From a virus (taxonomy: Duplodnaviria; Caudoviricetes): a stretch of 43,784 nucleotides of DNA. The notes below the pieces were generated by a model. That model was given only the letters and a program-made list of their open reading frames with translations. It had not been told where the DNA came from and searched no databases. Every line of letters starts with the position of its first letter. Position 1 is the stretch's first letter. The stretch spans positions 1 through 43,784 of IMG/VR virus record IMGVR_UViG_3300015370_000024. One strand, given 5' to 3'. Below are positions 1 through 19,382 of this stretch, piece by piece. Made by a program: the position numbers and the translations under genes.

Positions 1-179
1 GGCTCTAATCGGTTGACCTCTGGCCTATTCCATCCAAACTCGCGCCCGTATTCGTACCAGTGTTTTACTCGCCACAAAGTACGGTCAAAACTATTCGGCT
101 CTTGTGGCTCTGGCTGCGGAATAGCAAACTCCACCGCGCCGTCAGAATATACATACAAATCACGGATAAGCGTTACCAT
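1..179 (-). CDS. Hypothetical protein, N-terminal part running off the window start
   Basis: Not in ORF track; ATG at 179 overlaps end of 160..465; open to base 1 (MVTLIRDLYVYSDGAVEFAIPQPEPQEP...); shares VYSDG motif with upstream gene. Confidence 0.6.
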   Translation of the reverse strand, partial: MVTLIRDLYVYSDGAVEFAIPQPEPQEPNSFDRTLWRVKHWYEYGREFGWNRPEVNRLE

Positions 180-465
180 CTACCGTTATACTCCCGTCAC
201 TGTAAACTTTGATCGTGTGCGTCAGGGTTGGTCCACCTGGCTCTGGATCCGGCTCCTCATCAGTTACCACCGTCAATAATTTTTTGTCGATATACATCCC
301 CTCGAGATTTTCCCTATTGCTATACATGATAATGTGATAGACCACTCCGCCCTTTTGGATGGTGGAATTTCCCAATACCACCACAGTCAGGCGGCCAGCT
401 TTTCCCCCCACATTCCCGCTCTTTGTCCTGTACACTGTCCCATCCGGCACGCTGTAAGTAATCAT
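160..465 (-). CDS. Hypothetical protein with Pro/Glu linker
   Basis: GAGGTG RBS and upstream TATAAT; EEPDPEPGGP linker. Confidence 0.65.
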   Translation of the reverse strand: MITYSVPDGTVYRTKSGNVGGKAGRLTVVVLGNSTIQKGGVVYHIIMYSNRENLEGMYIDKKLLTVVTDEEPDPEPGGPTLTHTIKVYSDGSITVDGNAYP

Positions 466-539
466 CGCTCACCTCTGTTATAATTATACCATCGCTCGGC
501 GTGTGGCCTGCCAAATCAATTCGCAGATACCCGGAGCGA

Positions 540-1361
540 CTATATCATTACCAATTCTACCGGATCGCCTATGTCGCCGCCCGCGTGTATTACGAAATAT
601 TGCAATCCAACTTTATTTAGCGTCAATGGTGCCACTTTGTACGCATATCGCGTTTTTTGTTGCCAACTGGGAGATATAAGCCCGCGAACGGGGAAATATG
701 CGCCTTTGTAACGCGCGATAAATATCTGCCAGTATGGATCATGGGTGTGCCCAGAAATAATCATGTGCGGCGGCTCCTGTCCTTCATTCACCGTATCGTA
801 GTAGATATTCCTTAACCAATTCCTAAAACCGTTGCCTTTGTTCGCGCCCTTGCCGCTAACGGGCCCGTGATGTACCCACCATATACGCCTATCATTGATT
901 GTCAATTTCAATTCGTTGAACGCATAAAGATTATCATCCGCCTGGACCGCCCCCATTTTTTCGCCTATCACATCCTCCCCGGAATTTGTGTGAACTTCTG
1001 TCCCAAGTGTGTAATACAACAAATCCCCGCGCCGATAATCCACCGCCCGTTTGAACCATGTCATCAATTCAGTGTGGATGTCTATTTGTTCCTTTTCGAG
1101 CAAAGTGCAGACAGTAGATAGCCCATAGCGATTTCCTTCGATTGCATCCCCATTGATGACAATGATTAGCCGCTTATCTTTTCGCGCCTTCAATACCTCC
1201 CTGGCGCAATATTCAAAGTGTTTCCAAATTCTCAACTGCGCTCCCTTCGGCGCATGGACTTGTTTAGACTCCGCAAATTCGACAAATCTGTCAGGAAACA
1301 GCGCGAAATTGCTCCCGCTGTGCATGTCCGATAGTGTGACCACCAGCGTGTCTCTATTCAT
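540..1361 (-). CDS. Calcineurin-like metallophosphoesterase
   Basis: Motifs LSDMH, INGDAIEG, GTEVH, HHG, GHTH in the expected order. Confidence 0.8.
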   Translation of the reverse strand: MNRDTLVVTLSDMHSGSNFALFPDRFVEFAESKQVHAPKGAQLRIWKHFEYCAREVLKARKDKRLIIVINGDAIEGNRYGLSTVCTLLEKEQIDIHTELMTWFKRAVDYRRGDLLYYTLGTEVHTNSGEDVIGEKMGAVQADDNLYAFNELKLTINDRRIWWVHHGPVSGKGANKGNGFRNWLRNIYYDTVNEGQEPPHMIISGHTHDPYWQIFIARYKGAYFPVRGLISPSWQQKTRYAYKVAPLTLNKVGLQYFVIHAGGDIGDPVELVMI

Positions 1362-1476
1362 TTGATTTTATCCTTTTGGGATTGTACTCATTATGGCAAA
1401 TTTACGATGATTGCTATCGTTACAGCAACCGCAATAAGTCCTAAAATGATAAGGTAAATTCGAGCGCCGTTTCTCA

Positions 1477-1788
1477 TTAGCCCCCCGCCGTTTGTAATAG
1501 TCTGATTATGCCGTATCCAATTGCAGATAGCAACGGCATCAATATCCCACCTAAAATAACGAGGATAAGTTTTACCCTATCCTCCAGCCTGCTTATTCTC
1601 TTTTCGTGGTCGTCCACTGCCCGCTCGTTGTTTTCAACAACCTTATCCTTATGCCTCCGTTCAGCCATTGATAATTTTATAGTATCAATAGACTGCTGCA
1701 AAGCATTGAAGTGATCGTCCGTCTTTTTTTCAAAGTCTTTGAAGTCTTTGGATGATACCGAGATGTCACCGTTTGCCATAATAGACAA
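1477..1788 (-). CDS. Coiled-coil protein with C-terminal TM helix (XhlA/holin-like)
   Basis: DDHEKRISRLE coiled coil then one hydrophobic helix; next to holin-like gene. Confidence 0.5.
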   Translation of the reverse strand: MSIMANGDISVSSKDFKDFEKKTDDHFNALQQSIDTIKLSMAERRHKDKVVENNERAVDDHEKRISRLEDRVKLILVILGGILMPLLSAIGYGIIRLLQTAGG

Positions 1789-1885
1789 CCCTTATGTTAA
1801 TGTCCCGGTATTGGTGGCGGGCATTATATTATTTCGCCGGGGGTAGTTCGCCGCTACCCCCGGCATAGAAAGGAGGAGGAAACGT

Positions 1886-2080
1886 TTATCCCTTGCGCAG
1901 GCTCACCTTCGTGCTGGTAACGAGCCGCAAGACAAGGACAATTACAGACACAACAACGTTGACGATCTCGGTCACGTTGCTGTCCGGGGTGTAATCAGCG
2001 TAACCGAACAAACCGGCCACACTCACAAGCCCGAACAAAACCGCGAACCATACAGTTTTACTTTCATACCATGCTTTCAT
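1886..2080 (-). CDS. Putative holin (2 TM)
   Basis: MKAWYESKTVW start, two hydrophobic helices, basic C-terminus. Confidence 0.6.
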   Translation of the reverse strand: MKAWYESKTVWFAVLFGLVSVAGLFGYADYTPDSNVTEIVNVVVSVIVLVLRLVTSTKVSLRKG

Positions 2081-2277
2081 TTTTTATCTCCTTCTAACAT
2101 AGAACGAACAAAGCAATCTTTTGCCTCTAGCAATTTACGCATCCCCGCTGATTTTTCAGGGCCATCGGGAAGCGCCGCCTCCATTAAATATGCAAGGTCA
2201 CATAATGGTTTAGCAACTTCTTGCAAATTTTCGGGAAGGTGGTCGTATTCAAAATACTGAATTGTGGTACTTGGCAT
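2077..2277 (-). CDS. Small helical phage protein, Acb2/Tad1-hairpin-like
   Basis: Start moved to ATG 2277 (AAGGAG RBS); F.Y.HLP..LQ.V.KP...LPDGPEKS...RKLLEAKDCFVR. Confidence 0.5.
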   Translation of the reverse strand: MPSTTIQYFEYDHLPENLQEVAKPLCDLAYLMEAALPDGPEKSAGMRKLLEAKDCFVRSMLEGDKK

Positions 2278-2302
2278 TATTACTCCTTTTTCAAAAATTA
2301 TA

Positions 2303-2704
2303 CTACAAAACTTCAAGATACCATCCGGCGGTATCAAGTTCTTTCAAGCTAATGTACACCGCGCCGCCTTCCTCAACGTCCCCAACCTCCCGGACTGTCC
2401 GGCGTATCAAGTTGTCATCCAGCCCTAGCGCCTTGAATATCCCATCGCGTGTGCTCTTGAAGGCGGCCTCGATGTTATCATCATCGCGCCTGCGCCTATC
2501 TGGCGGACATATCAACATATACAATTCGAGCGGCTTCTCTCCGCTAAATCCCAACTTGCTATCCAGGGTGATGTAATAACCAACTTGCCGCGCGTATTGT
2601 CTCTCGTTTGTCAGGCGCCTGTGATCCTTGCGCGAGTTTGGCGATAGGCGCATGTCAGGAAATGGATACCGGATTAGTTCAGTCGTCTTCGGCTTCGCTG
2701 TCAT
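2303..2704 (-). CDS. rusA: RusA-like Holliday junction resolvase
   Basis: PPDRRRRDDDNI...K...DG...LGLDD catalytic signature. Confidence 0.75.
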   Translation of the reverse strand: MTAKPKTTELIRYPFPDMRLSPNSRKDHRRLTNERQYARQVGYYITLDSKLGFSGEKPLELYMLICPPDRRRRDDDNIEAAFKSTRDGIFKALGLDDNLIRRTVREVGDVEEGGAVYISLKELDTAGWYLEVL

Positions 2705-2827
2705 CTAACTCAATCCGCATTTCCACGCCCTCGCGAAACGCAAAGGCGGCAATCTCTTCCGCCGTCATGAATGGCCAGATTACGTATATCACACTGGTTT
2801 CACTCATCGATCAACTTTCTATCTCAT

Positions 2828-3253
2828 TCATATCTCTAACTCCGCATCAATAAAAAAATCTTCGGGTAATTCGCGTCCGCGTACCTTGTAAAGAAGTCTT
2901 ACCCACTCTATTTCTGTTATCTCAATTTTCTTGGGAACAAACTTGCGAGCATAATCATTCAATGAAACAACGCGCCACCACGAAAAATTATCAGCATACC
3001 GAACAGCAAATACAGGAATGCCCGCACGATCACCCAAATCTATAAGCGCCTTATAGGTTGCAGTAGTTGGCGTTTGTGGTTTTGCATATTCATGCTTGTA
3101 TTCCACCAGCGCAGTAGCTTTGCAATTATCATATTCAACAAATAGCCAATCAATATCAAACCCAGGACAATCCCAACCCCACCTTCTATGCCTTGCGCTT
3201 AGTCTTTGATCGCGCCAGCCCGTCCGTTCCTCGGCCACTTTATTTGACATCAT
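2828..3253 (-). CDS. Putative PD-(D/E)xK nuclease-fold protein
   Basis: DID...LVEYK motif; overlaps the stop of the MTase gene. Confidence 0.45.
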   Translation of the reverse strand: MMSNKVAEERTGWRDQRLSARHRRWGWDCPGFDIDWLFVEYDNCKATALVEYKHEYAKPQTPTTATYKALIDLGDRAGIPVFAVRYADNFSWWRVVSLNDYARKFVPKKIEITEIEWVRLLYKVRGRELPEDFFIDAELEI

Positions 3254-4307
3254 TCAATCTCGCCTTTGAAATATTCACATTGTCAATGTCGATTTCAACA
3301 CCATCAAAAAGACAACCCAACTCAAGCGCAGCTACACCCGTAGAGCCTGCGCCACAAAATGGATCTAAAATATAATCACCTTCATTAGCAAACCGCCTGA
3401 TAATATCTGTCATTCCGCTTACAGATTGCCCCCAGTCATGGCCGCTTTTGTCGTTGTCATTTACATCAGACTTGCAAACATCTCCAAACCATTTCCCATC
3501 ATACTCGCCTTTAGCATAAATAAGTAGTGGCTTCCAATATGGCATAGCTTTTCTTGGGAACACTTGTGCTGACTGTCCGCCTGGCGTAAGGTATGCGCCT
3601 GTCCACCAATATTTCAAGTGCCTATCGAACATAGCATAAATCTGATTTAAGTATGCTTGTCCACACATAGCAATCAAAAGCCCGCCATCTTTCAGCCATT
3701 CATTAGCCGCCCGCTTTGCCAAGATTGGATAAAGATATAAATATTCGTATTTGTAAGGCGCGTCTGTGATAATGAAATTGTATTGTCGAGGCGCTTTCCA
3801 CGCTTGCATGTCCGCATGGTAAACGTTCCATCGTTCTGTCGGCTGTAGGTCTTTGCCAAGCGCTGCAATTCCATTTCGTTCTTTCTTGCGTAAATGATTT
3901 TTGGCAAGACCACGCAAACCCGACGCGCTTATTTCTCTTTCAGTTGACAGGCATTCATCCACCCATTCGAGAAAACGCTCTTCTGGCAAGGCCGCCTCTA
4001 ATTGCCAGCGGGAACTTTCATATCTATTTATTCCATCTGGCAAACGAGTCGCATCTTGCAACTCGTTGCCAGCAACTGCGCCGCGATGATCTACATTTCT
4101 TTCCAGCCACGCCCCCGCCCTGCGCTCTGCCTTTAGCTGGAATATCTTAGCCTTTTGCGCCGCATCTTTGAAGCCCTGAGCGTTTGCGAACAATTGAAAA
4201 GCAGCCGCCCTATCACGCAAAGATACCATTTCGTGAATATTGTCCGCCCGCTCAAGCGCCTGTTCTGCCGCGCTAATCTCTACGAGAGCCTTATTTTCTT
4301 CTTCCAC
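3240..4307 (-). CDS. N6-adenine/N4-cytosine DNA methyltransferase with N-terminal helical extension
   Basis: ITDAPY (DPPY-like) before ILDPFCGAGSTG, beta-class order. Confidence 0.8.
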   Translation of the reverse strand: MEEENKALVEISAAEQALERADNIHEMVSLRDRAAAFQLFANAQGFKDAAQKAKIFQLKAERRAGAWLERNVDHRGAVAGNELQDATRLPDGINRYESSRWQLEAALPEERFLEWVDECLSTEREISASGLRGLAKNHLRKKERNGIAALGKDLQPTERWNVYHADMQAWKAPRQYNFIITDAPYKYEYLYLYPILAKRAANEWLKDGGLLIAMCGQAYLNQIYAMFDRHLKYWWTGAYLTPGGQSAQVFPRKAMPYWKPLLIYAKGEYDGKWFGDVCKSDVNDNDKSGHDWGQSVSGMTDIIRRFANEGDYILDPFCGAGSTGVAALELGCLFDGVEIDIDNVNISKARLNDVK

Positions 4308-10075: not shown

Positions 10076-11346
10076 CAGAAATACCGCGCAGCAGAGAAGC
10101 AGAGGAAGCGTTGCTCGGATCGTTGATTATCGCGCCAGAACTCATGCCAACGATAGCGCTAAAGCCGGAGTATTTTTACATCGTTCGTCATCAATGGATT
10201 TTTGCAGCCATGCAAGAACTGGACCGCCGGGGGATTACATTTGACTTAGTTACGCTATCCGAAGAATTGAATAAGCATGACCGGCTTACAGAATTGGGCG
10301 GACCTGCCTATCTCACAGCCCTGATAAACCAATCCCCCACATCTCTAAATGCCTCGCATTATGCCGATATTGTCAGGGACAAGGCGTCAAGGCGCAACGA
10401 TATAAAAATAGCCAATATGATTGCAGAGGGCGCTTTCAATGGCGGAGTGGACAGGGCAAAGGCTATTGATTTACTTACCAAGAATTCCGATAATGGCAAG
10501 GGCGCAACGCCTTTAGCCGATAGCCTTCCTGAATTTATGGATCTGGTAGAAAAACGAGCCATGAACCCGAAAGATGTATGGGGAATAGATACTGGACTCC
10601 CTGATCTTAATAAACGTACAGGCGGATTGCACAAACAACAAACTACCATGCTAGTAGGCGCGCCAGGAGTGGGAAAAACTACATTAATGTTACAGATTGC
10701 TTTGCACGCGGCTCAGAAGGATTGCTCGGTAGCTATCTATGAATTGGAAATGGACTTGCAGCCCCGTCTTATTTCTCGCCTTATGTTTATGTTGACGGGT
10801 GTCCCTTCCCGTGCCATGCTATCAGGAAACATGCGTGAAGAATATTGGCCGATGCTTACAAATGGTATAGAAATCTTGGCAACCTTGCCGATTTATATCT
10901 GTGACAACCCGGTCATGGATACAATGAAGATACGGGCGGACGTTGCCAGGATGAAAGCGCAAAAAGGGATTGAATTTGTTGCACTGGATTATTTGAATTT
11001 GCTCACAGACAAGGACGGTGACAACTCGAATGAGAACACAAGCGCAAAGGCTACACGGTTCAGGCAGATATGCAGGGAGTTTGACGTTGCTGGCCTAACT
11101 GTCCAGTCGATGAACAAAGAAGGGATGAAGTCGCTCATCCCGCACTTGGCGGATATGTCCGGTCCTGCTGAGGTTGCCTTTAGCGCCGATAATGTTTTCT
11201 TCCTGGTCGAAGAGCCAGACAAACCATTGATGTATAAACTACTACCAGCCAAACAAAGGGATGGCGATATGGGACATTCACCAATCCAGCTTATCCGGCC
11301 TAAAAATAAAATAGGCTTTCAATGTACTACACTTTTGGAGAGATAA
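10072..11346 (+). CDS. dnaB: Replicative DNA helicase
   Basis: IPRSREAEEALLGSLI N-domain, GIDTGLPDL..TGGL, Walker A GAPGVGKTT, LEM, LDYL, KQRDG. Confidence 0.95.
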   Translation: MTEIPRSREAEEALLGSLIIAPELMPTIALKPEYFYIVRHQWIFAAMQELDRRGITFDLVTLSEELNKHDRLTELGGPAYLTALINQSPTSLNASHYADIVRDKASRRNDIKIANMIAEGAFNGGVDRAKAIDLLTKNSDNGKGATPLADSLPEFMDLVEKRAMNPKDVWGIDTGLPDLNKRTGGLHKQQTTMLVGAPGVGKTTLMLQIALHAAQKDCSVAIYELEMDLQPRLISRLMFMLTGVPSRAMLSGNMREEYWPMLTNGIEILATLPIYICDNPVMDTMKIRADVARMKAQKGIEFVALDYLNLLTDKDGDNSNENTSAKATRFRQICREFDVAGLTVQSMNKEGMKSLIPHLADMSGPAEVAFSADNVFFLVEEPDKPLMYKLLPAKQRDGDMGHSPIQLIRPKNKIGFQCTTLLER

Positions 11347-11537
11347 TGGAAACTCAAGCAGAATATAAAACAGGAAGCCCCGCTCTATTTCACGCCACCG
11401 CCACAGAGTACAGAATATGGACGTACTGTCCGAACTGCTGGGACAGAACGGAACATCTATTCAAGTACGAAGATGAAACAAAAGAATATTACGAATGTCA
11501 GTGTTGCCAAAAACTACACGGCATTGCAGTAAGATGA
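11346..11537 (+). CDS. Small Zn-ribbon protein
   Basis: YCPNC...YECQCC; GGAG RBS. Confidence 0.55.
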   Translation: METQAEYKTGSPALFHATATEYRIWTYCPNCWDRTEHLFKYEDETKEYYECQCCQKLHGIAVR

Positions 11538-11734
11538 CCACAGATGAACGAATAGACTGGCTGTATGATGCGCTTATTGAAATCGAAGGCTTGTTGGTCG
11601 AACAGGCAGACTGGACAGAGCGCGAAAGGAAAATCTACTCTATCATTGCGCATGCGCTAAATGATTTTGATGCCAGCGAAATTAAGACGAATGTCACCTT
11701 GATTTTATGACAACGAATAGCGTAAAATGATAGT

Positions 11735-11902
11735 ATGGAAATCAATCTGAACAAAGATTTGTTCCACGCACTAAAGTTTCTAGTAGCCGCTATAGACAAT
11801 GACCAGCAATACGGGTTGGCGCTGGCGTTAGATGAAGCGCGGACGGTGATCGCAAACACCGAAATGGTGCTGGATTTTCAAGAAGTTTTGGAAGAAGGCT
11901 GA
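11735..11902 (+). CDS. Hypothetical protein, probably leaderless (55 aa)
   Basis: Not in track; TAAAAT 11723-11728, 6 nt, then ATG; open to TGA 11902. Confidence 0.5.
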   Translation: MEINLNKDLFHALKFLVAAIDNDQQYGLALALDEARTVIANTEMVLDFQEVLEEG

Positions 11903-11903
11903 A

Positions 11904-12455
11904 ATGTCAACAATAAATCAATACGACCGAATGAACGATCCCGAACTTGGCAGTGGTATTTACGCTCAGACAAGTTTTGTAGAACAATGGTGTACCGCGC
12001 TCGCTCGTCTGAAGGAACTCGATCCGGATTGGGAAACGTGGTACGACGAACGACCGGAGCAAACAACGGGCAAACTGCTACCGCTGATTGAAGCGCGGAT
12101 TATCTGGCTGGAGGGCGCAATTGAAACACTAGAGCGGGACGAACGCGCTGGTGTTGATATTGACGGCTTTTTGTTGGTCATGGCTGTAGCAGACTGCCCG
12201 CCCGATACGTATCGGATTGCAGACGACCCCGACCGGCTGGGGAAGGCGGTGGCTCTGGCTTATATGGAATTCCCCGAACCAGACTGGCGCGAAAAGCGGA
12301 AACAGGAATGGCAAGACTGGAAGGCGCGCTGGATTGCGGCAAATGGTGATTATCTAACGCCTCACGGGTATAGAACGATCCGCCCGCCACTTACAGACCG
12401 AGGGTTGCAAGACGATGAATTTCAATGCTGGCACGACGATCCGGGATTGTATTAA
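11904..12455 (+). CDS. Hypothetical protein
   Basis: 183 aa ORF with AAGG RBS in the + strand operon. Confidence 0.65.
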   Translation: MSTINQYDRMNDPELGSGIYAQTSFVEQWCTALARLKELDPDWETWYDERPEQTTGKLLPLIEARIIWLEGAIETLERDERAGVDIDGFLLVMAVADCPPDTYRIADDPDRLGKAVALAYMEFPEPDWREKRKQEWQDWKARWIAANGDYLTPHGYRTIRPPLTDRGLQDDEFQCWHDDPGLY

Positions 12456-12658
12456 TAGGGCTGTGATGCAAAAATATTGGTATTACATTACTATTTATTA
12501 TTGCCCACAATGTAACAAAACTGTCGAAATTCGTGAGCGCAAATATACTCTACGACCCGACAAATGGGAAGAACGCCACGAAGTCAAAGAGCAATATGAT
12601 TGGTGCGGATAGGGCTACCGCTGGCCTTAGATAGCGGCAAGGAGACACCAGACAAGAT

Positions 12659-12705
12659 AACTAACTCTAACTTACTCGAACTCAAACTCGAACTCAAACT
12701 CTAAC
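12659..12705 (+). repeat. Degenerate AACTCN hexamer tandem repeat
   Basis: ..ctcg aactca aactcg aactca aactct aac.. directly before the RBS of 12722. Confidence 0.7.
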
Positions 12706-12721
12706 CAGAAAAGGATATAAA

Positions 12722-13174
12722 ATGAAACTCTCAGAAATGTTCCCCAGCGACCTGCTCAAATCACAGGATATTTTAGACGCAGGCGGCGAAATGACACTCA
12801 CCATCCTGAAAGTTGAAATGAAAACTTTCGACCGGGATGAGGGCGACAAAGACACAAAGCCTATTGTTTACTTTGAAGAGGGCAAGCAATTGGTTTTGAA
12901 CGTTACCAACAAGAACGCAATTGCAGAAATGCACGGCCAGGAAGATACCGATCAATGGATTGGTAAGCAAGTTACTTTGACCGTCAAAGATGTCGAATTC
13001 CAGGGCAAAACTGTTCTTGGCATCCGAGTCAAAAACGAAAACAGCAAGGATGCTCTTATCCAAGAATTTTGGTCAAGCGCCCGCGCTCTTGGATATGACC
13101 AGAAAGCCGGTCAGGAGTTGTTGAAAGAACACAACATGGATTTCAAGGCAGCTATCGCCGCTCTCGAATTCTAA
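12722..13174 (+). CDS. Putative ssDNA-binding/recombination-associated phage protein
   Basis: FPSDLLK..D...KPIVYF...KQLVLN.TN...W.GK.VTL...V.F.G...GIRV pattern typical of phage replication modules. Confidence 0.5.
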   Translation: MKLSEMFPSDLLKSQDILDAGGEMTLTILKVEMKTFDRDEGDKDTKPIVYFEEGKQLVLNVTNKNAIAEMHGQEDTDQWIGKQVTLTVKDVEFQGKTVLGIRVKNENSKDALIQEFWSSARALGYDQKAGQELLKEHNMDFKAAIAALEF

Positions 13175-13233
13175 CCCCTCAACGCCCGTCCTGCTCTACT
13201 TGGCTGGGCAGGACGGGCTCGGAAAGGTACTAT

Positions 13234-13584
13234 ATGGCAAAAGGTGATTACCCAACAGGCGCATTAGTTGTAGTTTTGCGCGAATATAGATATAGTGGCG
13301 GAAGCCATGAAGTTTATGAGCATGCAAAAAAGGAATTGAAAAACCTGATGATGTGCCTCGTAAATTTTGAAGCCGCCCAACAAGGCGTGCAGTCGGAACA
13401 GATGGGGCAGGATACTGACCCTAAACAGAATCCAGGCGAAAAGAGCGAAGCCGCCTGTCCCTATTACACACACAATGCCCTGTTAGCGTGGCATGGAAAC
13501 TATAAGTATTGTCCTGAGTGCGGGGAGCGGCTTCGCTGGTCTGGTAAAGAGACGGATTCTCAACCCGCCCCATCTGTCCGCTGA
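13234..13584 (+). CDS. Cassette ORF, hypothetical, C-terminal Zn-ribbon-like
   Basis: GAAAGG RBS; reads through attC and stops at TGA in the L' box. Confidence 0.65.
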   Translation: MAKGDYPTGALVVVLREYRYSGGSHEVYEHAKKELKNLMMCLVNFEAAQQGVQSEQMGQDTDPKQNPGEKSEAACPYYTHNALLAWHGNYKYCPECGERLRWSGKETDSQPAPSVR

Positions 13585-13601
13585 CGCTCTGCCCGTTAGC
13601 C
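13375..13601 (+). repeat. attC-like site 1
   Basis: GCCCAAC-AAG-GCGT(G)CAG(T)CGG(A)ACAGATGGGG ... CCCCATCTGTCCGCTGACGC-TCTGCCC-GTTAGCC. Confidence 0.8.
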
Positions 13602-13690
13602 CGCGCTGCGGCCACCCAACGAACGGGTGTCCTTGGCGGGCTAATGGGGCAAGCACTAATGCAGAGCTAGCCCTTCGTGAAAGGAAAAAG

Positions 13691-14074
13691 ATGTTCACTG
13701 ATATTCTTGAAGCCGAAATAAAATGGTGTGAAAATAATGATGGCGCTATGCCAGAAGAATTTCGTAAAGGGTTTATTGCTGGCCTAAAGCAAGCGATTTA
13801 CCTGATAAACGCCGCTCTTCAACGGATAGGGTGGGAAGAAGGTGTGCTTGAAAATGATGGAGTCTGGTTAGACATGCGCGGGCTAACTCTGCATGAAGCT
13901 GTCCAACGGTACGGGGATAATCCCGTTTCCGAAGATTCTACAGGCTATTCGGGTTCTGCTTTTTGTGAATGTACGGGTGATAAGTATGGCTATTTTGACA
14001 AGGTTTCTGGAAAATGTTTGTATTGCAACAAGCAGCAGAACCCTCACGCATTCCGTGACAGGTTTTTTTCCTAA
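13691..14074 (+). CDS. Cassette ORF, hypothetical, C-terminal Cys-rich
   Basis: Start reassigned to ATG 13691 (AAAGGA RBS); CEC...CLYC in the attC loop. Confidence 0.65.
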   Translation: MFTDILEAEIKWCENNDGAMPEEFRKGFIAGLKQAIYLINAALQRIGWEEGVLENDGVWLDMRGLTLHEAVQRYGDNPVSEDSTGYSGSAFCECTGDKYGYFDKVSGKCLYCNKQQNPHAFRDRFFS

Positions 14075-14119
14075 GCCCGCCCCGTACTCCGTTGGCAGCT
14101 TATGCTCGCCCCATTAGGC
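13881..14119 (+). repeat. attC-like site 2 (ATT core variant)
   Basis: GGCTAAC-TCT-GCAT(G)AAGCTG(T)CCAACGG ... CCGTTGGCAGCTTATGC-TCGCCCC-ATTAGGC. Confidence 0.8.
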
Positions 14120-14207
14120 GGAACTGCGGCGGGTAGCAACCCCGCCTTGCCGTCCAACGGCACCCAGCGACCCAACGCAGAGCTGGACTTCTTGAAAGGA
14201 TAAAAAG

Positions 14208-14522
14208 ATGGCAAATAATCATGATCTCGCAAATCTCATCTACCTTGCTCTCAAAGATAAGGGGGCGGGAGTGGGTAACGCTTCGATAGGTATCATTCGG
14301 AAAGTTCTTGATGAACATAATGCAGTCCGTCCAACTCTGCGTGCACCCGTCCATAGGGGGGTCTCAGTGGAATTGCCAGATTATCCACTGTATGAACTGG
14401 TTGAGGAGCTAAAAAACGGGGTGTACGTTCAATTTGTTGGCGTCCACGCTCTTGAATGGCGATCCGAATGGGGTCGTCCTAAATATGGCTTTATTGAATA
14501 CGACCCTCCCAATGGCGGGTGA
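14208..14522 (+). CDS. Cassette ORF, hypothetical
   Basis: AAAGGA RBS; stop TGA inside the L' box. Confidence 0.65.
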   Translation: MANNHDLANLIYLALKDKGAGVGNASIGIIRKVLDEHNAVRPTLRAPVHRGVSVELPDYPLYELVEELKNGVYVQFVGVHALEWRSEWGRPKYGFIEYDPPNGG

Positions 14523-14540
14523 CGCTGGGTGCCGTTAGGC
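14329..14540 (+). repeat. attC-like site 3
   Basis: GTCCAAC-TCT-GCGT(G)CACCCG(T)CCATAGGGGGGTC ... GACCCTCCCAATGGCGGGTGACGC-TGGGTGCC-GTTAGGC. Confidence 0.82.
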
Positions 14541-14549
14541 CGCTTACTT

Positions 14550-15395
14550 ATGAATAAATTTGATTTGCATTTCGGTGATTGTCTCAATGTGTTGCCCCGG
14601 TTGAAGGGCGGCAGTATAGATGCAATTATCACTGATCCTCCATACTCAAGCGGCGGTGCATACCGAGCAGACCGCACACAAACAACGGATAAAAAGTATC
14701 AACATACAGCAGAAACAAATCGTAGTTATGCAACATTTTCAGGAGACAATAGAGACCAAAGAAGTTTTGAAAAGTGGTGCTATATGTGGATGTCTGAAAG
14801 TCTAAGAGTAACCAGGGAAGGTGGTATTTTTGCAACGTTTATTGATTGGCGAAACATAGCCAGCATGATTGATGCCGTTCAGATTGCTGGGTGGGTATTT
14901 CGCGGAATAGTTCCATGGTACAAAGGAAAAGATCAACGCCCGCGCAAGGGTTGGTTTAGGGCAAATGTGGAATATTTAGTAATGGCTTCAAATGGCCCAT
15001 TGCTAACAGGCCACAAAGCACCTGGTATTTGTGCAGATGGTATTATTTATGCTCGCATAAATGGAATTGAAAAATATCATCAAACCGGAAAACCCGTTGA
15101 GGTTGCAACTCATCTTGTTACCATGCGGCCAGACATTCAAAAAGTTCTTGACCCCTTTATGGGAAGTGGTACAACCGGCATAGCATGTATGCAAACAGAA
15201 AGATATTTTATCGGTATTGAAAAAGAAAATGAGTATTTTGAAATAGCTAAAGAGCGCATTGAAAACGCCGCCCTTCAACCTGTCTTGCTAGAAAAAGGCG
15301 GCCTAACACAGCGTGAACCTGACAAGGGGGATTCTCCCCGTCAATCGAGTTTTATCAGCCCCGAAGCGGATACCGCTCAGGGAGCATTATCGTAG
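14550..15395 (+). CDS. N6-adenine/N4-cytosine DNA methyltransferase (cassette-borne)
   Basis: GDCL, ITDPPY, HQTGKP, VLDPFMGSGTTG; ATG 14550 just after R'. Confidence 0.9.
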   Translation: MNKFDLHFGDCLNVLPRLKGGSIDAIITDPPYSSGGAYRADRTQTTDKKYQHTAETNRSYATFSGDNRDQRSFEKWCYMWMSESLRVTREGGIFATFIDWRNIASMIDAVQIAGWVFRGIVPWYKGKDQRPRKGWFRANVEYLVMASNGPLLTGHKAPGICADGIIYARINGIEKYHQTGKPVEVATHLVTMRPDIQKVLDPFMGSGTTGIACMQTERYFIGIEKENEYFEIAKERIENAALQPVLLEKGGLTQREPDKGDSPRQSSFISPEADTAQGALS

Positions 15396-15428
15396 CCCGC
15401 CCCTTGCAGGTTACGCAAACCGTTAGAC
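15301..15428 (+). repeat. attC-like site 4
   Basis: GCCTAAC-ACA-GCGT(G)AACCTG(A)CAAGGGG ... CCCCTTGCAGGTTACGC-AAACC-GTTAGAC. Confidence 0.88.
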
Positions 15429-15531
15429 CGCGCTCGGCGACCAGCAACGAACGCTGGCCCCCTCCCTCGGTCTAACGGCGCGAGCACTAATGCAGAGTCA
15501 GACCGCTTACTCTAAAAGAAAGGTGTTGCAA

Positions 15532-15762
15532 ATGGAATATGAATTACTGGCTATCTTATATGCAACCAAAAACAGTCGTAAATTGTCAGCGTCGCAAATG
15601 GATGCTATAAAGGAATTTGCCATCTTCCTAGACACGCGCGGTCTAACTCTGCATGAACCCGTCACAGCCATTCAGGGCGGGTTTACGTGTGAAAATTGCG
15701 GGTGCGCTAATAGTGGCTCATTCGATACGTGTGTAGAGTGCGATGCCCCCCGCCCTTCATGA
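15532..15762 (+). CDS. Cassette ORF with C-terminal CxxC...CxxC Zn ribbon
   Basis: AAAGGTG RBS; FTCENCGCAN...CVEC in the attC loop. Confidence 0.65.
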   Translation: MEYELLAILYATKNSRKLSASQMDAIKEFAIFLDTRGLTLHEPVTAIQGGFTCENCGCANSGSFDTCVECDAPRPS

Positions 15763-15795
15763 ACGGCTGAGCGGGTTATGCTCGTGCCGTTAGGC
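15641..15795 (+). repeat. attC-like site 5
   Basis: GTCTAAC-TCT-GCAT(G)AACCCG...CAGCC ... GGCTGAGCGGGTTATGC-TCGTGCC-GTTAGGC. Confidence 0.82.
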
Positions 15796-15874
15796 GGCCC
15801 GCGGATGGGCAACAACCGCCCACCCTTGCCCGCCTAATGGCGCAAGCACAAATGCAGTAGCTAGGCTACTAGAA

Positions 15875-16075
15875 ATGGAAGAAAAGATGGATCGTAAATG
15901 TGAAAATTGCAAATTTTTTGAGGATATAAACAAATGGGGCCATTGCAGGCGTTATGCCCCTCGTCATATATCGGGTGTAGGTACAGGCTATGAGGAAAAA
16001 ATGTGGCCTGAAGTTAAATCGTATGATTGGTGTGGTGAATTCCAAGAGAAAGAGCCTTGCCCGAAGGCCGCCTAA
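15875..16075 (+). CDS. Cassette ORF, Cys-rich phage protein
   Basis: CENCKFF..GHCRRYAP..WP.V...DWCGEF; stop TAA inside R''. Confidence 0.7.
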   Translation: MEEKMDRKCENCKFFEDINKWGHCRRYAPRHISGVGTGYEEKMWPEVKSYDWCGEFQEKEPCPKAA

Positions 16076-16197
16076 CTACTGCATGGAGCGGAACTTGGGC
16101 AAGCTCCATCAAAGAAATTTATACCGATGTCTAAAAACATTTATCCGATTAGCAAGCGCGTACTCGCCCAAGTCCGCTCATGCTTGCGCCATTGGGC
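16070..16197 (+). repeat. attC-like site 6 (ATT core variant)
   Basis: GCCTAAC-TACT-GCAT(G)GAGCGGA(A)CTTGGGC ... GCCCAAGTCCGCTCATGC-TTGCGCC-ATTGGGC. Confidence 0.82.
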
Positions 16198-16219
16198 GGA
16201 CTGCTCAAAGAAGGTGATT

Positions 16220-16453
16220 ATGGAAGAAGAACTTTATCAATCGCTAAAAGATGTTCTAAGCATGTTTGGTGATGTAGAGCCAGGCAGTCGCACATGGCAC
16301 TTTATCAACAAGGCAAACATAGTTATTGCCAAATATGAAGGCCGCCCAACAAAGCGTGCAGCGGACGGGGTAACGGGCTGTGCATGTAAGCCTGAATTAC
16401 CCTATCTTCTAACTGGCGACATTTGTTCGGAGTGTAAATTACCCCGCCGCTGA
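16220..16453 (+). CDS. Cassette ORF with C-terminal Cys motif
   Basis: AAGGTG RBS, ATG 16220; CAC...CSEC; stop in L'. Confidence 0.65.
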   Translation: MEEELYQSLKDVLSMFGDVEPGSRTWHFINKANIVIAKYEGRPTKRAADGVTGCACKPELPYLLTGDICSECKLPRR

Positions 16454-16468
16454 CGCAAACCGTTAGAC
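16344..16468 (+). repeat. attC-like site 7
   Basis: GCCCAAC-AAA-GCGT(G)CAGCGG(A)CGGGGTAA ... TTACCCCGCCGCTGACGC-AAACC-GTTAGAC. Confidence 0.88.
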
Positions 16469-16513
16469 CCCTTCTTGTAAAATTATCTCACCCCTAAAAG
16501 GAAAGGTTATCCA

Positions 16514-16897
16514 ATGAATGAAAACGAAATCAAACAGAAGTTAGACCAGTTGGCAGAGTTTCAATCCGAGCGCGATGTTGCTATGCTTGAAAAACAACGT
16601 CTGCTCGATGAAATTTATACCGCCGAAATCAAGGCGCGGATGGCTGAAATAGAAGCCGAGTTTGCAGGTAAGACCGAAGCGGTAAACGAAAACATCTCCG
16701 TACTCGAAGCCGAAATAAAACAGGCTATTATCGAGCATGGCGCAAGCGTCAAAGGCTCTGTGTTTCATGCGGTCTTTGCAAAAGGTCGCGTATCGTGGGA
16801 TACAAAATCTCTCGATGGTTACGCAACCGCTCATCCTGAATTGCTTACGTTCCGAAAAGAAGGTGAGCCATCAGTCAGTATCCGTGTTGCAAAATAG
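16514..16897 (+). CDS. Cassette ORF, coiled-coil protein (Mu Gam/Gp157-like)
   Basis: Long N-terminal coiled coil; C-terminal KGRVSWD.K.L....HPEL..FRKEGEPSVSIR. Confidence 0.5.
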   Translation: MNENEIKQKLDQLAEFQSERDVAMLEKQRLLDEIYTAEIKARMAEIEAEFAGKTEAVNENISVLEAEIKQAIIEHGASVKGSVFHAVFAKGRVSWDTKSLDGYATAHPELLTFRKEGEPSVSIRVAK

Positions 16898-16904
16898 GCA
16901 CGGG

Positions 16905-17263
16905 GTCTAACACAGCGTGAACCAGACGGCGGGAATCATACCGTTGAAAATGAGTTGTTCCCGCCCGAAGCTTATTCCGATTTTGAAGGAGAGCAGTAAT
17001 CCACCCGCCGCCGAACAACGCAATGAAGCTGTCCAACGGAGAGATGAAATGAGTTTCAAAGAAGCATGTGCAAAAGCAGCAATAAAAGCAGGTGAAACAG
17101 GAGTGCAGTTTTTCGTGTACGATGCCCCTACCACGTGGGATGTTACTGCTTCTTTTCGTCCAGGTTGGTTGTTTCGTGCGTATCCCGGTGGCCGTAAGGT
17201 TTTGTCGGTTGAAGGCACAAAGCTCTTGCAAGAAGATGAGCTGCCTAACGCAAACCGTTGGGC
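16905..17263 (+). repeat. Disrupted/composite attC-like site 8
   Basis: Left arm GTCTAAC-ACA-GCGTGAACCAGACGGCGGG; partial partner CCCGCCG 17004-17010; second left arm at 17010; orphan right end ACGC-AAACC-GTTGGGC ending 17263. Confidence 0.6.
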
Positions 17264-17288
17264 TGCTGTAGGTGGCCCGGAAAGGTAA
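17049..17288 (+). CDS. Cassette-region ORF, hypothetical
   Basis: GGAG RBS, ATG 17049 (MSFKEACAK). Confidence 0.55.
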   Translation: MSFKEACAKAAIKAGETGVQFFVYDAPTTWDVTASFRPGWLFRAYPGGRKVLSVEGTKLLQEDELPNANRWAAVGGPER

Positions 17289-17294
17289 AGAATA

Positions 17295-17582
17295 ATGAGT
17301 ATCCCATTCACACAATATCTTCTCCCAAATGGTAGGTGCAATCTAGTTACGATTGATATGCCAGAAGATGTCGAAAAGAAAGCACATGCACTTATTGAAG
17401 CAGGTTGTCATTTTGATATTGAAGTTCTCACTACTGGCCTTGTCAGTATGACGTGTGAACGCGATGACGATATGCTTTCGATTGAAGTTTGCGAAGGTGG
17501 GCCGCCTGTTGTTGCTGGCGTGCGTAAGATTGTTGAGAGCGCAGCAGCCCAACTACGCGTGCACTTGACGGGTGAAGCGTGA
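17295..17582 (+). CDS. Cassette ORF, hypothetical phage protein
   Basis: GAAAGG RBS; MSIPFTQYLLPNGR; ends inside attC 9. Confidence 0.7.
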   Translation: MSIPFTQYLLPNGRCNLVTIDMPEDVEKKAHALIEAGCHFDIEVLTTGLVSMTCERDDDMLSIEVCEGGPPVVAGVRKIVESAAAQLRVHLTGEA

Positions 17583-17640
17583 CCGTTATATCGGTATTCC
17601 CCGTTATGTTTCACCCGCAAGTAACGCAAGTTCGTTCGAC
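17547..17640 (+). repeat. attC-like site 9
   Basis: GCCCAAC-TAC-GCGT(G)CACTTG(A)CGGGTGAA ... TTCACCCGCAAGTAACGC-AAGTTC-GTTCGAC. Confidence 0.75.
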
Positions 17641-17764
17641 CGCGTGCGGCCAGGGGCAACGAACGCCGCCCCCCTCCCTCGGCCTAATGGGGCGAGCATA
17701 CAATGCAGAGTTATGCTCGCGCCATTAGCTGGCTTCGTGCCAGAGAAAGAGTTGAAAGTCTAGG

Positions 17765-17983
17765 ATGCTAACTTATGATGAAATGAAATTAGTAGCCGAA
17801 GGTTGCTATCGCCCATCTAACGATCAACGGGTTCGCGCAATGGTGAAGCTGATTGAGGATATTGTATTCCCAGAGCATGTGTTTTCATATTCCGAGGAAG
17901 AAATGCTAAACGCATTGATGCGTAAATTGGGTGTTCAGTTGACGCTTGCGCATTGGGCAGACCCCGAAAGGATAGAAGCATGA
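17765..17983 (+). CDS. Hypothetical protein (array)
   Basis: ORF after the ATTAGCT core; ATGA-coupled to next gene. Confidence 0.55.
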   Translation: MLTYDEMKLVAEGCYRPSNDQRVRAMVKLIEDIVFPEHVFSYSEEEMLNALMRKLGVQLTLAHWADPERIEA

Positions 17984-18192
17984 CGTATGATTTTATGAGA
18001 GAGTTACGCGCTCAGTGGACAAGGTGGGTGGAAGAAGAAAATAAATGTCCGCATTGTGGTGGTGTCCTGCCACGGATACAAAGTCCGTTAGCTAATAATC
18101 TGTCTGCCCAACAAAACGTGCAGCGGAAGCATGAGCATAATCACGTATTTATTGGCGGTGTGTGTCGTCACTGTGGCAAGAAATGTTATTAA
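17980..18192 (+). CDS. Small Zn-finger-like protein (array)
   Basis: CPHCG and H.H...CRHCG; reads through an orphan attC left arm at 18106. Confidence 0.6.
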   Translation: MTYDFMRELRAQWTRWVEEENKCPHCGGVLPRIQSPLANNLSAQQNVQRKHEHNHVFIGGVCRHCGKKCY

Positions 18193-18214
18193 TCCGCCAA
18201 GAGAGTAGGTAATT

Positions 18215-18589
18215 GTGACAAAAATTATTGCTCAAAATGCACTAGGGCGTGGAACACGTCAGGTCATTATCCAAAGCAATGATGGCAAAATATACGAAGC
18301 CCATCTGGAGCGCGGAGATAAAATCGAGAATGCCGATTGGAAACCAACGCAGTCGCAAGACCCCGCTAGCTTTGGGGGTGCTATGTACCATCAGGGCCAG
18401 GGCTGGCTCTTTGTTGGTTACTGTGCTCTCATGGCTCCGTTTTTCCTGATTGCGTATTTGCTCATAACGGGTCGTATGCAATGGCAAACGGTTGAATTGT
18501 TGGGTCAGATATGCGGCATTCCAGTGTTTTTGTTTTTCGCGGTCGGGATGCCAGTCATTATTGCAATTAAGAAACGTCACCATGGATGA
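18215..18589 (+). CDS. Membrane protein (2 TM)
   Basis: GTG start with AGGT RBS; two C-terminal hydrophobic helices. Confidence 0.55.
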   Translation: MTKIIAQNALGRGTRQVIIQSNDGKIYEAHLERGDKIENADWKPTQSQDPASFGGAMYHQGQGWLFVGYCALMAPFFLIAYLLITGRMQWQTVELLGQICGIPVFLFFAVGMPVIIAIKKRHHG

Positions 18590-18770
18590 ACTTGAAATTG
18601 CTAAAAATGCACTTGAGCAAATCATCGGATATTATCGGCGCAGTCATAAGCATGGCAAAAATACGTGCTATATGATGTGCCTTGAGGCAGAGAGGGCTTT
18701 GCAAGAAATGAGCCTTCTAACACAGCGCGCGGACGAGCTGACAACGTTATCCCTCAAGAGCAAGCTCTAA
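18582..18770 (+). CDS. Hypothetical protein ending in a degenerate attC remnant
   Basis: ATG 18582; TTCTAAC-ACA-GCG.. at 18715 gives LLTQRAD. Confidence 0.5.
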   Translation: MDELEIAKNALEQIIGYYRRSHKHGKNTCYMMCLEAERALQEMSLLTQRADELTTLSLKSKL

Positions 18771-19304
18771 GTAAGCCTCTTCCTCTAATGTTTGTCTTAT
18801 TCTTTCAGCATCTTCTTCCCCATAAATATAAGATAGTATCTCCTCGATGTATGTTCTCTCTCTAGTTGTAGTAGGTTTATATTCTGGGAACTTTTTCGTA
18901 AAATCACCCAAATCAAATCTATTCCAATGTCCAAATTCCTTGTATACATCTTCCAATAATATAACTTCTGCTCTTGACAATTTCTGAAATTTCACAGGCT
19001 TGCCATGAAGTCTTATTGAAACATCATCAGATTGCTCAATGTGTTTGCGCCATAGTGGATCTTTGATTTTGTCGTTAATCAAATCTAAAACCCCACTTAG
19101 TACTTGTCCTTCTTTCATGGAATAATATGTATCAAATGTAATTGGACGCTCCCAATTCTCCAATGCTTTTCTATCTGCTATGTACAACAACTTTATTATT
19201 TTGAGGCGGCTCATTTTTCCCCCATGCATACTAAGAAGCAATGAAGCTGCTTCAGTAGCCTTTTGTTCATTGAACTCAGGATACTTCTTATCGTTTATTA
19301 TCAT
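18747..19304 (-). CDS. Panacea (SocA/GepA, DUF4065-like) antitoxin-domain protein
   Basis: K..KLLYIADR......PIT.D.Y.SMKEGQV motif; GAGGAG RBS and own TGTATAAT; AT-rich. Confidence 0.75.
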   Translation of the reverse strand: MIINDKKYPEFNEQKATEAASLLLSMHGGKMSRLKIIKLLYIADRKALENWERPITFDTYYSMKEGQVLSGVLDLINDKIKDPLWRKHIEQSDDVSIRLHGKPVKFQKLSRAEVILLEDVYKEFGHWNRFDLGDFTKKFPEYKPTTTRERTYIEEILSYIYGEEDAERIRQTLEEEAYLELALEG

Positions 19305-19382
19305 TTTCTCCTCAATGTGATTATACAACATCAAGGCACCTGTTACAATAAAGCGGAGGAGTCTATTCATTTCCCATCGTTT

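Follow-up and report, generated by a model that had tools for sequence, protein, structure and literature searches.

Control of attC folding is thought to lie with the site itself and with host factors. In integron cassettes, including those of phage integrons and of arrays without an integrase (CALINs), these sites have an R''-L''...L'-R' arrangement, cross over at G/A|TT and are biased towards folding of the bottom strand, features shared by the cassettes described here; the available portions of these reports (PMC9892861, PMC5027507, PMC2727003) do not describe a further copy, antisense to both arms of the attC, like the one present here. In laboratory attC mutants in which the spacer is paired and the extrahelical base is missing (UCS-paired, EHB-deleted; mut13, mut20 and mut21), recombination by IntI1 falls 8.5e4-fold, a figure from the accessible part of a study of IntI1 rather than of this IntI clade (PMC2727003). 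Internal sequences complementary to recombination sites are found in other elements. For instance, the ICR of DIRS-1, which likewise involves ssDNA and a tyrosine recombinase, is complementary to both junction ends (PMC7192593, seen in part), while the seekRNAs or bridge RNAs of IS110/IS1111 elements, including the IS1111-attC group, carry short segments complementary to the recombination site beside a structured region (PMC11187229).

The window analysed here, 43,784 nt in length, is a whole phage genome (IMG/VR record IMGVR_UViG_3300015370_000024) containing an attC array (Table 1), the sites of which have R'', L'', L' and R' boxes, a spacer and an extrahelical base. Neither an IntI integrase gene nor a recognisable attI was found within the window; in its kin, a full IntI lies beside the arrays, scoring above the TIGR02249 cut-off in two of the three kin searched, and attI and the first cassette are found at the 3' end of intI. 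This placement of attI and its co-orientation with intI differ from known integrons, as does the continuation of ORFs through attC. The array is backed by independent contigs, two leaders also being covered by a second sample, and GC skew is positive across it. Putative IntI-dependent excision and integration were observed as natural junctions only. GenBank record KX853513 bears the same integron family; a search of 17.6 kb of it gave no leader. No DNA match to GenBank phages and plasmids was found, and no usable array was present in a Vibrio phage record.

Table 1. Leaders, attC sites and leaderless cassettes of the phage array (window coordinates).
Positions	Strand	Feature	Details
13234..18770	+	attC array lacking an integrase (CALIN), in a phage genome	11 crossovers; five cassettes with leaders
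13370..13595	+	attC of leaderless cassette	Upstream of leader 1
13596..13672	-	Leader 1	Start stem and hairpin; S1 13636-13655; S2 13659-13672; predicted bottom-strand fold
13876..14113	+	Own attC of leader 1	Left-arm AAC 13885; crossover after 14113; ORF 13691-14074 runs through left arm
14114..14188	-	Leader 2	S1 14149-14169; S2 14175-14188; start mismatches S1 (chimeric 5' end)
14324..14534	+	Own attC of leader 2	AAC 14333; S1 mirrors the 8-nt spacer; ORF 14208-14522
14535..15422	+	Leaderless DNA-methyltransferase cassette	Ordinary attC with 5-nt spacer
15423..15506	-	Leader 3	S1 15467-15486; S2 15490-15506
15636..15789	+	Own attC of leader 3	AAC 15645; terminal loop encodes Cys-rich module of ORF 15532-15762
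15790..15866	-	Leader 4	S1 15829-15848; S2 15852-15866; S2 tracks extra base of left arm
16065..16191	+	Own attC of leader 4	AAC 16074; ORF 15875-16075
16192..16462	+	Leaderless cassette	Ordinary attC
17258..17634	+	Leaderless cassette	Preceding site 17244-17257 is a collapsed attC
17635..17724	-	Leader 5, collapsed	S1 17679-17698; S2 fused to right arm; crossover 17724

Five cassettes begin with a leader of ~73 nt, each at the place given in an earlier note and directly after an attC crossover (13595, 14113, 15422, 15789 and 17634). From 5' to 3', a leader comprises a start stem, a hairpin, a segment (S1) antisense to the right arm and crossover of the cassette's own attC, a linker, and a segment (S2) antisense to the left arm of the same site. 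The loops and linkers described in that note, and its S1 and S2 matches at 14159 and 15852, are all present, as is the agreement of leader AAT or AAC with the crossover base (5/5). The co-variation it reported within each cassette is likewise borne out, with 10, 11, 10 and 11 of 11 S1 bases matching the cassette's own right arm and S2 scoring highest on its own left arm in four cases out of four. The leader 5 cassette has collapsed: its ORF and left arm are missing, and S2 is joined to a right arm. Continuity of S1 with the right arm and cassette start only, also claimed, holds for three of the five leaders and fails at 14114, where the 5' half of S1 is closer to the cassette's own left arm (7/7) than to the cassette start (5/7), and at 17635, where this half also departs from the cassette start. 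The pattern goes beyond chance: a covariance model run over the whole window returned five leader matches, all at crossovers, plus self-complementary echoes; Rfam 15 gave nothing at gathering score across 12400-19000, and two chance matches at E above 3.

Approximately 50 homologous leaders were located in other phage and metagenome contigs; L039, L042 and L057 were left out as duplicates of the window. Comparison of pairing with own and with other attC sites, named in the earlier note as a refuting test, strongly favoured the former and did not refute its proposal. S1 matched 10-11 of 11 bases of its own attC in 32 of 37 cassettes (0/100,000 permutations), the other five being mismatched. Among 22 distinct pairs the match was 9.5 of 11 with own sites and 6.1 with others, among type-I pairs only (n = 11) 10.4 and 7.9, and for S2 (n = 34) 12.4 and 7.0, with 0/100,000 permutations in each case. 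The pivot base pairs with the cassette's own crossover in 35/36 and with the upstream crossover in 15/35. As in the DIRS-1 ICR, both junction ends are copied internally, most cassettes having an S1 that fits the right arm plus the start; over its 5' half, S1 matches both left arm and start in 22 of 35 cassettes, the left arm only in six, the start only in four and neither in three. Between leaders and their own attC sites, co-variation is at the level of single bases and extends to indels and to the crossover base.

These sites are of a distinct type, with long GC-rich spacers lacking in ordinary ones: the right spacer is at least 7 nt in 32/36 leadered and 2/43 leaderless cassettes. Eleven of 47 leaders outside the window sit after an attI or attI-like site with a normal crossover, and near-identical scaffolds occur with many different downstream neighbours, indicating that the leader-bearing site is in use. 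Most cassettes of this family are leaderless. No leader-type antisense copy was found at 140 crossovers in leader-blind arrays, and 37 leader-blind loci yielded two strong matches; one leader-blind match had a swapped right arm, and for five of ten further leaders, a matching right arm was absent within 900 nt. Model R1 gave no match in 121 genomes of one phylum sample or four single genomes, a scan run without a positive control in which part of the candidates were scored, nor in 18 stretches of terminase kin. All 14 matches from a GTDB pattern scan were attributable to chance. No description of leader-type control of cassettes was found in the literature searched.

Of the three readings offered in the earlier note, the cis anti-attC switch acting by refolding has the strongest support, a guide RNA and a pure footprint both being disfavoured. 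There is about an even chance that the leader, as an antisense copy of its own attC arms, acts in cis as bottom-strand ssDNA to form a conditional brake on the integron integrase, the most likely explanation because the helix predicted to form is similar to that of a near-dead attC mutant already reported. On ssDNA, whether an excised circle or an exposed strand, S1 would take the right arm and start and S2 the left arm, the attC thereby becoming a predicted three-way junction at the extrahelical base; the long spacer would be the toehold from which an attC that has already folded is invaded. With its spacer paired and an extrahelical base lacking, the new R-box helix would be recombined poorly by IntI, and the cassette would therefore be expected to be excised and re-used less. 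Its predicted geometry is that of mut20 in the circle and of mut13 on a foreign upstream arm (PMC2727003, in the part available), but unlike the mutants it would arise naturally by refolding, with the three-way junction replacing the extrahelical base.

In equilibrium folding, modelled without SSB or IntI, the attC R box of the circle was predicted at 0.00 in 30/30 cases with DNA parameters, against medians of 0.86-0.91 when S1-S2 was shuffled, and the four window cassettes showed a predicted gap of 15-20 kcal/mol. For linear fragments without the start, the modelled value for a cassette's own L box was 0.00 in 14/14, against a shuffled median of 0.70; the predicted effect on the upstream attC was modest (L box 0.65 vs 0.93, n = 12). 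Linear folding of the whole array lost the attC in the control as well. Since leadered cassettes are also found at attI, the brake would have to be leaky or timed. Counted against it are the use of the leader-bearing site noted above, the equal locking of both strands in silico, the five mismatched cassettes, the five further leaders lacking a matching right arm, the leader-blind match with a swapped right arm and a length ladder in leaderless cassettes (below); the positive GC skew, which may place the bottom strand on the leading template, is also entered on this side.

The S2 core bears on whether leaders are themselves recombination sites. Alteration of its GTT, earlier claimed for all four intact cassettes of the window, is common but not universal: the core is broken in 30/34, with 23 different core 6-mers, and the preceding seven bases match at 88-100%. 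S1-linker-S2 does not constitute an attC, given this broken R box core and an L box of 4 bp. One natural crossover at S2 was seen, with L065:282 starting precisely where the L004 leader has its S2 core. The core is likely kept broken to stop the leader being a live site, such that it would be neither recombined as one nor cut off.

The main rival, possible but less favoured, is that the refolded form is the working one: S1 would be an internal ICR-like splint, or a substitute arm, that brings the two cassette ends into line at the crossover and thereby helps circles to form, cassettes to insert or new cassettes to be made from linear bottom-strand ssDNA. S1 spans the exact crossover and follows its base, the true core alone is predicted to remain intact after refolding, attI-type sites host leaders, near-identical S1-S2 pairs have unrelated N-terminal modules in 13/13 comparisons, and DIRS-1 provides a precedent (PMC7192593, in part). 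However, no reverse transcriptase was found in five genomes (control detected in 3/14), a paired-spacer helix is near-dead for IntI1, most cassettes lack leaders, and no consistent adaptation is apparent at IntI positions 109 and 161. Relative to the ICR as described in the portion seen, the element here lacks an associated RT, its junction copy is ~20 nt rather than 88, and a further segment is complementary to the other arm of the attC. IntI closes circles by itself, without a leader, so a splint is unneeded.

Leader length, 69-76 nt in 32/35, also fits a splint in equalling one step of a ladder. Lengths of the loop between S2 and the left arm follow a ladder with a step of 68.5 nt (R = 0.92, n = 34, 0/3000), near the 65-nt SSB wrap given in the accessible part of PMC9917605; this is taken as support for the brake, and leaderless cassettes share the ladder. 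The VTS loop clusters near 67 nt without clear-cut periodicity (R = 0.50), and a 35-nt half-step is present in the new set (0/1000) and absent from the first leaderless set (537/1000). It is conceivable, if doubtful, that the leader is a scaffold for making or launching cassettes, the SSB-coated bottom strand folding into a trefoil with SSB-sized loops, its ends splinted at the crossover, and IntI later cutting the leader away at the S2 core, after which the cassette would be an ordinary one.

An unlikely origin is a non-functional inverted duplication of the circle junction that an accident of IntI action or of replication left behind, with repair by template switching between the inverted repeats maintaining the match. 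The leader does read as the attC in reverse, the terminal stem being left out at the position of the extrahelical base, and rearrangement is heavy (chimeric starts, collapses, one inverted hairpin), yet such repair would also restore the S2 core, the hairpin retains strand-specific non-canonical features, leader length is fixed, and leadered attC sites form their own type.

The hairpin is more stable on the bottom strand in 37/41 leaders, carries C-GNA-G there in 31/41 against 3/41 on the top, and has loop ends A..C on the top strand (G.T on the bottom) in 25/41, with compensatory change in 11/14 pairs. Such bottom-strand signatures are shared by attC sites, according to the part of PMC5027507 available, and this attC-like DNA form argues against a guide RNA, whether bridge- or seek-like and cassette-specific or an R-loop RNA binding the top strand and freeing the bottom strand for IntI. 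Two guide-like segments do adjoin the hairpin on the transcribed strand, and long attC loops fold poorly out of dsDNA (PMC8946536, seen in part); this reading is nonetheless very improbable, as the bottom strand is favoured with RNA energies too (33/41), S1 and S2 pair with one strand, the leader is in every case in cis to its target and separated from it by a length that fits the ladder, promoters show no excess (9 vs 9.0 expected), Rfam gave no match, and, unlike IS110/IS1111, there is no sign of RNA and no DEDD/IS110 transposase in five genomes (control detected in 7/14). Least probable is an mRNA-level regulator in which leader-attC pairing tunes translation or read-through: S2 stops just ahead of the ribosome site, RNA folds give the same helices and ORFs run through the left arm in 35/36 automatic calls, but ribosome-site access in four cassettes changed little and in no fixed direction, the hairpin signature is that of the bottom strand, and tracking of the crossover base lacks an mRNA rationale.

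If the leader is a conditional brake, a cassette-borne, sequence-matched anti-attC would constitute a new layer of control, by which a single cassette sets its own mobility, and would also give attC engineering a switch that is ready to use. How cassettes are made is a question on which the ~35/70-nt steps of cassette and loop lengths bear, as do scaffolds common to unrelated genes; were the leader a scaffold for making them, it would reveal the birth of integron cassettes.

All five leaders claimed in the window by an earlier note proved to be real. Each runs from the cassette start through a hairpin, S1 (antisense to the right arm and crossover of the cassette's own attC), a 3-5 nt linker and S2 (antisense to its left arm) to a ribosome site. 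Read in reverse, S1-linker-S2 is the circular form of that cassette's own attC, minus the long terminal stem, which is bypassed at the extrahelical base. Pattern scans and a covariance model recovered about 50 homologous leaders, 47 of those listed lying outside the window; matches occurred in 9 of 14 virus records searched whole, clustered at arrays. The bacterial genomes searched yielded no leader. Leaders are rare in this array family, with two strong matches among 37 loci picked irrespective of leader content, and an antisense copy was present at 0/140 crossovers in leader-blind loci, as against 19/80 in leader-selected arrays.

One virus record, with a completeness rating of 100%, makes up the window and encodes DnaB, terminase, capsid and RusA; integrase, IS110 transposase and reverse transcriptase were sought there and none was found. 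Its array is an integron, and in relatives the same arrays follow a complete IntI (above the cut-off in kin genomes G001 and G003), with intI co-oriented and attI at its 3' end. GenBank KX853513, annotated just as xerD-like, is among the complete phage-borne integrons of this kind. Contigs with these arrays come from groundwater metagenomes. Phage-borne arrays without an integrase (CALINs) have been described (PMC9892861), in a text whose accessible part contains neither 'leader' nor 'antisense'.

Features of the window and of related contigs (L-numbers)
Feature	Contig	Position	Strand	Remark
attC cassette array	Window	13234-18770		Co-oriented small ORFs between attC sites; 11 crossovers
Start-to-left-arm ladder	Window; related arrays	13234-18770		~70 nt; about 152, 220, 292
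DNA methyltransferase genes	Window	3240-4307	-	
	Window	14550-15395	+	
Panacea/SocA-like antitoxin gene	Window	18747-19370	-	Array end
Unpaired L-box base	Window	13885, 14333, 15305, 15645		G on top, C on bottom strand
Collapsed/decayed attC	Window	17244-17257, 17002-17046, 17703-17724		Joined at short shared words
ORFs through attC left arm	Window	13885-14074, 15645-15762		Also L004, L049, L061
	L001	4057-4383		
Complete integrons	L001	1805-2791		intI co-oriented, attI at 3' end
	L004	4904-5929		As above
	L190	4680-5678		As above
Leadered arrays	L188 (G004)	1-3700, 11000-14609		Opposite orientations
Sole inverted hairpin	L059	1954-2025		Decayed cassette; inner hairpin flipped between two core repeats vs L043:1879-1950
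Expanded leaders	L004	2300-3660	-	
	L244	3120-3500		

The leader is a real, conserved and cassette-specific element. Taking the next crossover as each cassette's own attC, S1 matched it at 11/11 bases in 27 of 37 cassettes, at 10 in five and at 8 or fewer in five. The covariation described earlier held: own attC surpassed other attC in every test (0/100,000 permutations), also within a single attC type, and the covarying cases take in indels mirrored in both partners as well as cassettes with a second attC type; collapsing to 22 distinct leader-attC pairs removes kinship only in part. The pivot, the leader base facing the crossover base, pairs with it in 35/36, and five of ten further leaders matched their own attC at 11/11, the rest being without partner. 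S2 matches the left arm at 88-100% as far as the core, which is broken in 30/34 (two unaligned rows dropped; 23 distinct core 6-mers). The attC sites of leadered cassettes form a separate class: the left spacer begins with T in 30/36 (2/53 comparison sites), and the right spacer is at least 7 nt in 32/36 (2/43 leaderless). Papers describe a conserved G as the unpaired L-box base, unlike the bottom-strand C of four window sites.

Thirty circles (31 well-matched cassettes less one duplicate) were folded in silico, and the refolding suggested previously was predicted throughout: pairing of the attC R and L boxes drops to 0.00 in 30/30, and the helices start:S1, right arm:S1 and left arm:S2 form instead. 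With S1-S2 shuffled, the predicted R box recovers (median 0.86-0.91), and the computed energy gap is 15-20 kcal/mol. Linear fragments were predicted to lose their own L box in 14/14, with a modest effect on the upstream attC; in the whole-array linear fold, a control lost attC as well. An attC mutant with a paired spacer and no extrahelical bases recombined 8.5e4-fold less; where the extrahelical bases were the only loss, recombination fell 6-fold at attI and excision was blocked (PMC2727003). Combined with the predicted paired-spacer refold, these data suggest that the leader-refolded attC would brake recombination, a reading we consider about evenly balanced.

S1-to-left-arm distances cluster at 105, 171-184, 234-251 and 315-318 nt, with a period of 68.5 nt (R=0.92, n=34 with two related ORFs dropped; 0/3000 under three nulls); control ORFs have no ladder (R=0.10). 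Leader length (median 73) is one step. The ladder is shared by leaderless cassettes, half-steps (~35 nt) appearing in just one, newly collected set of them. Escherichia coli SSB binds ssDNA in wraps of 65 or 35 nt (PMC9917605), and the steps may reflect SSB-sized wrapping; 'periodic' is absent from the accessible part of PMC5371416. The ladder supports a single-stranded stage and does not separate the brake from other models, including a leader serving as splint or launch scaffold, which we hold possible, if doubtful.

Rearranged leaders also occur. The sequence starting at L065:282 is exactly that found 3' of the S2 core in the L004 leader; it shares the attC scaffold, has a different ORF, and is a single instance of a leader lost at S2. 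Leaders have collapsed onto the right arm in the window, L004 and L238. That the leader is a non-functional footprint seems improbable. A gene separates hairpin from S1 in L004 (twice) and L244, yet S1-S2 still fit the visible own arms, so pairing can act at long range. Two of three expanded leaders have an attI-like junction right behind the hairpin, as though hosting an inserted cassette. In read-through ORFs, the part lying in the attC terminal loop is often a CxxC zinc-ribbon module, and N- and C-modules are shuffled among cassettes (~2 ORFs were auto-called in the wrong frame).

Loops of the C-GNA-G kind are stable in DNA, and 31/41 distinct leaders carry one on the bottom strand. The hairpin is more stable on that strand in 37/41 with DNA energies. 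Traits of attC sites include G:T pairs on the bottom strand, purine skew and GAA loops (PMC5027507). Together these features point to bottom-strand ssDNA rather than a transcript as the acting molecule, and the leader is probably functional on ssDNA. The guide RNA proposed by the earlier note fares poorly, since the bottom strand is preferred even with RNA energies (33/41), and is very unlikely; control of mRNA is fractionally less credible still. The leader was rejected as an attC, as a seekRNA (PMC11187229) and as an Rfam family. Its closest likeness is the DIRS-1 ICR (PMC7192593), from which it differs in having no reverse transcriptase; no description of such leaders was found in the main texts of the open-access library searched.

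The brake would not be absolute, because an attI-type site directly precedes the leader in 11/47. Leadered cassettes may reach attI through loss of upstream cassettes, or in the interval before refolding.
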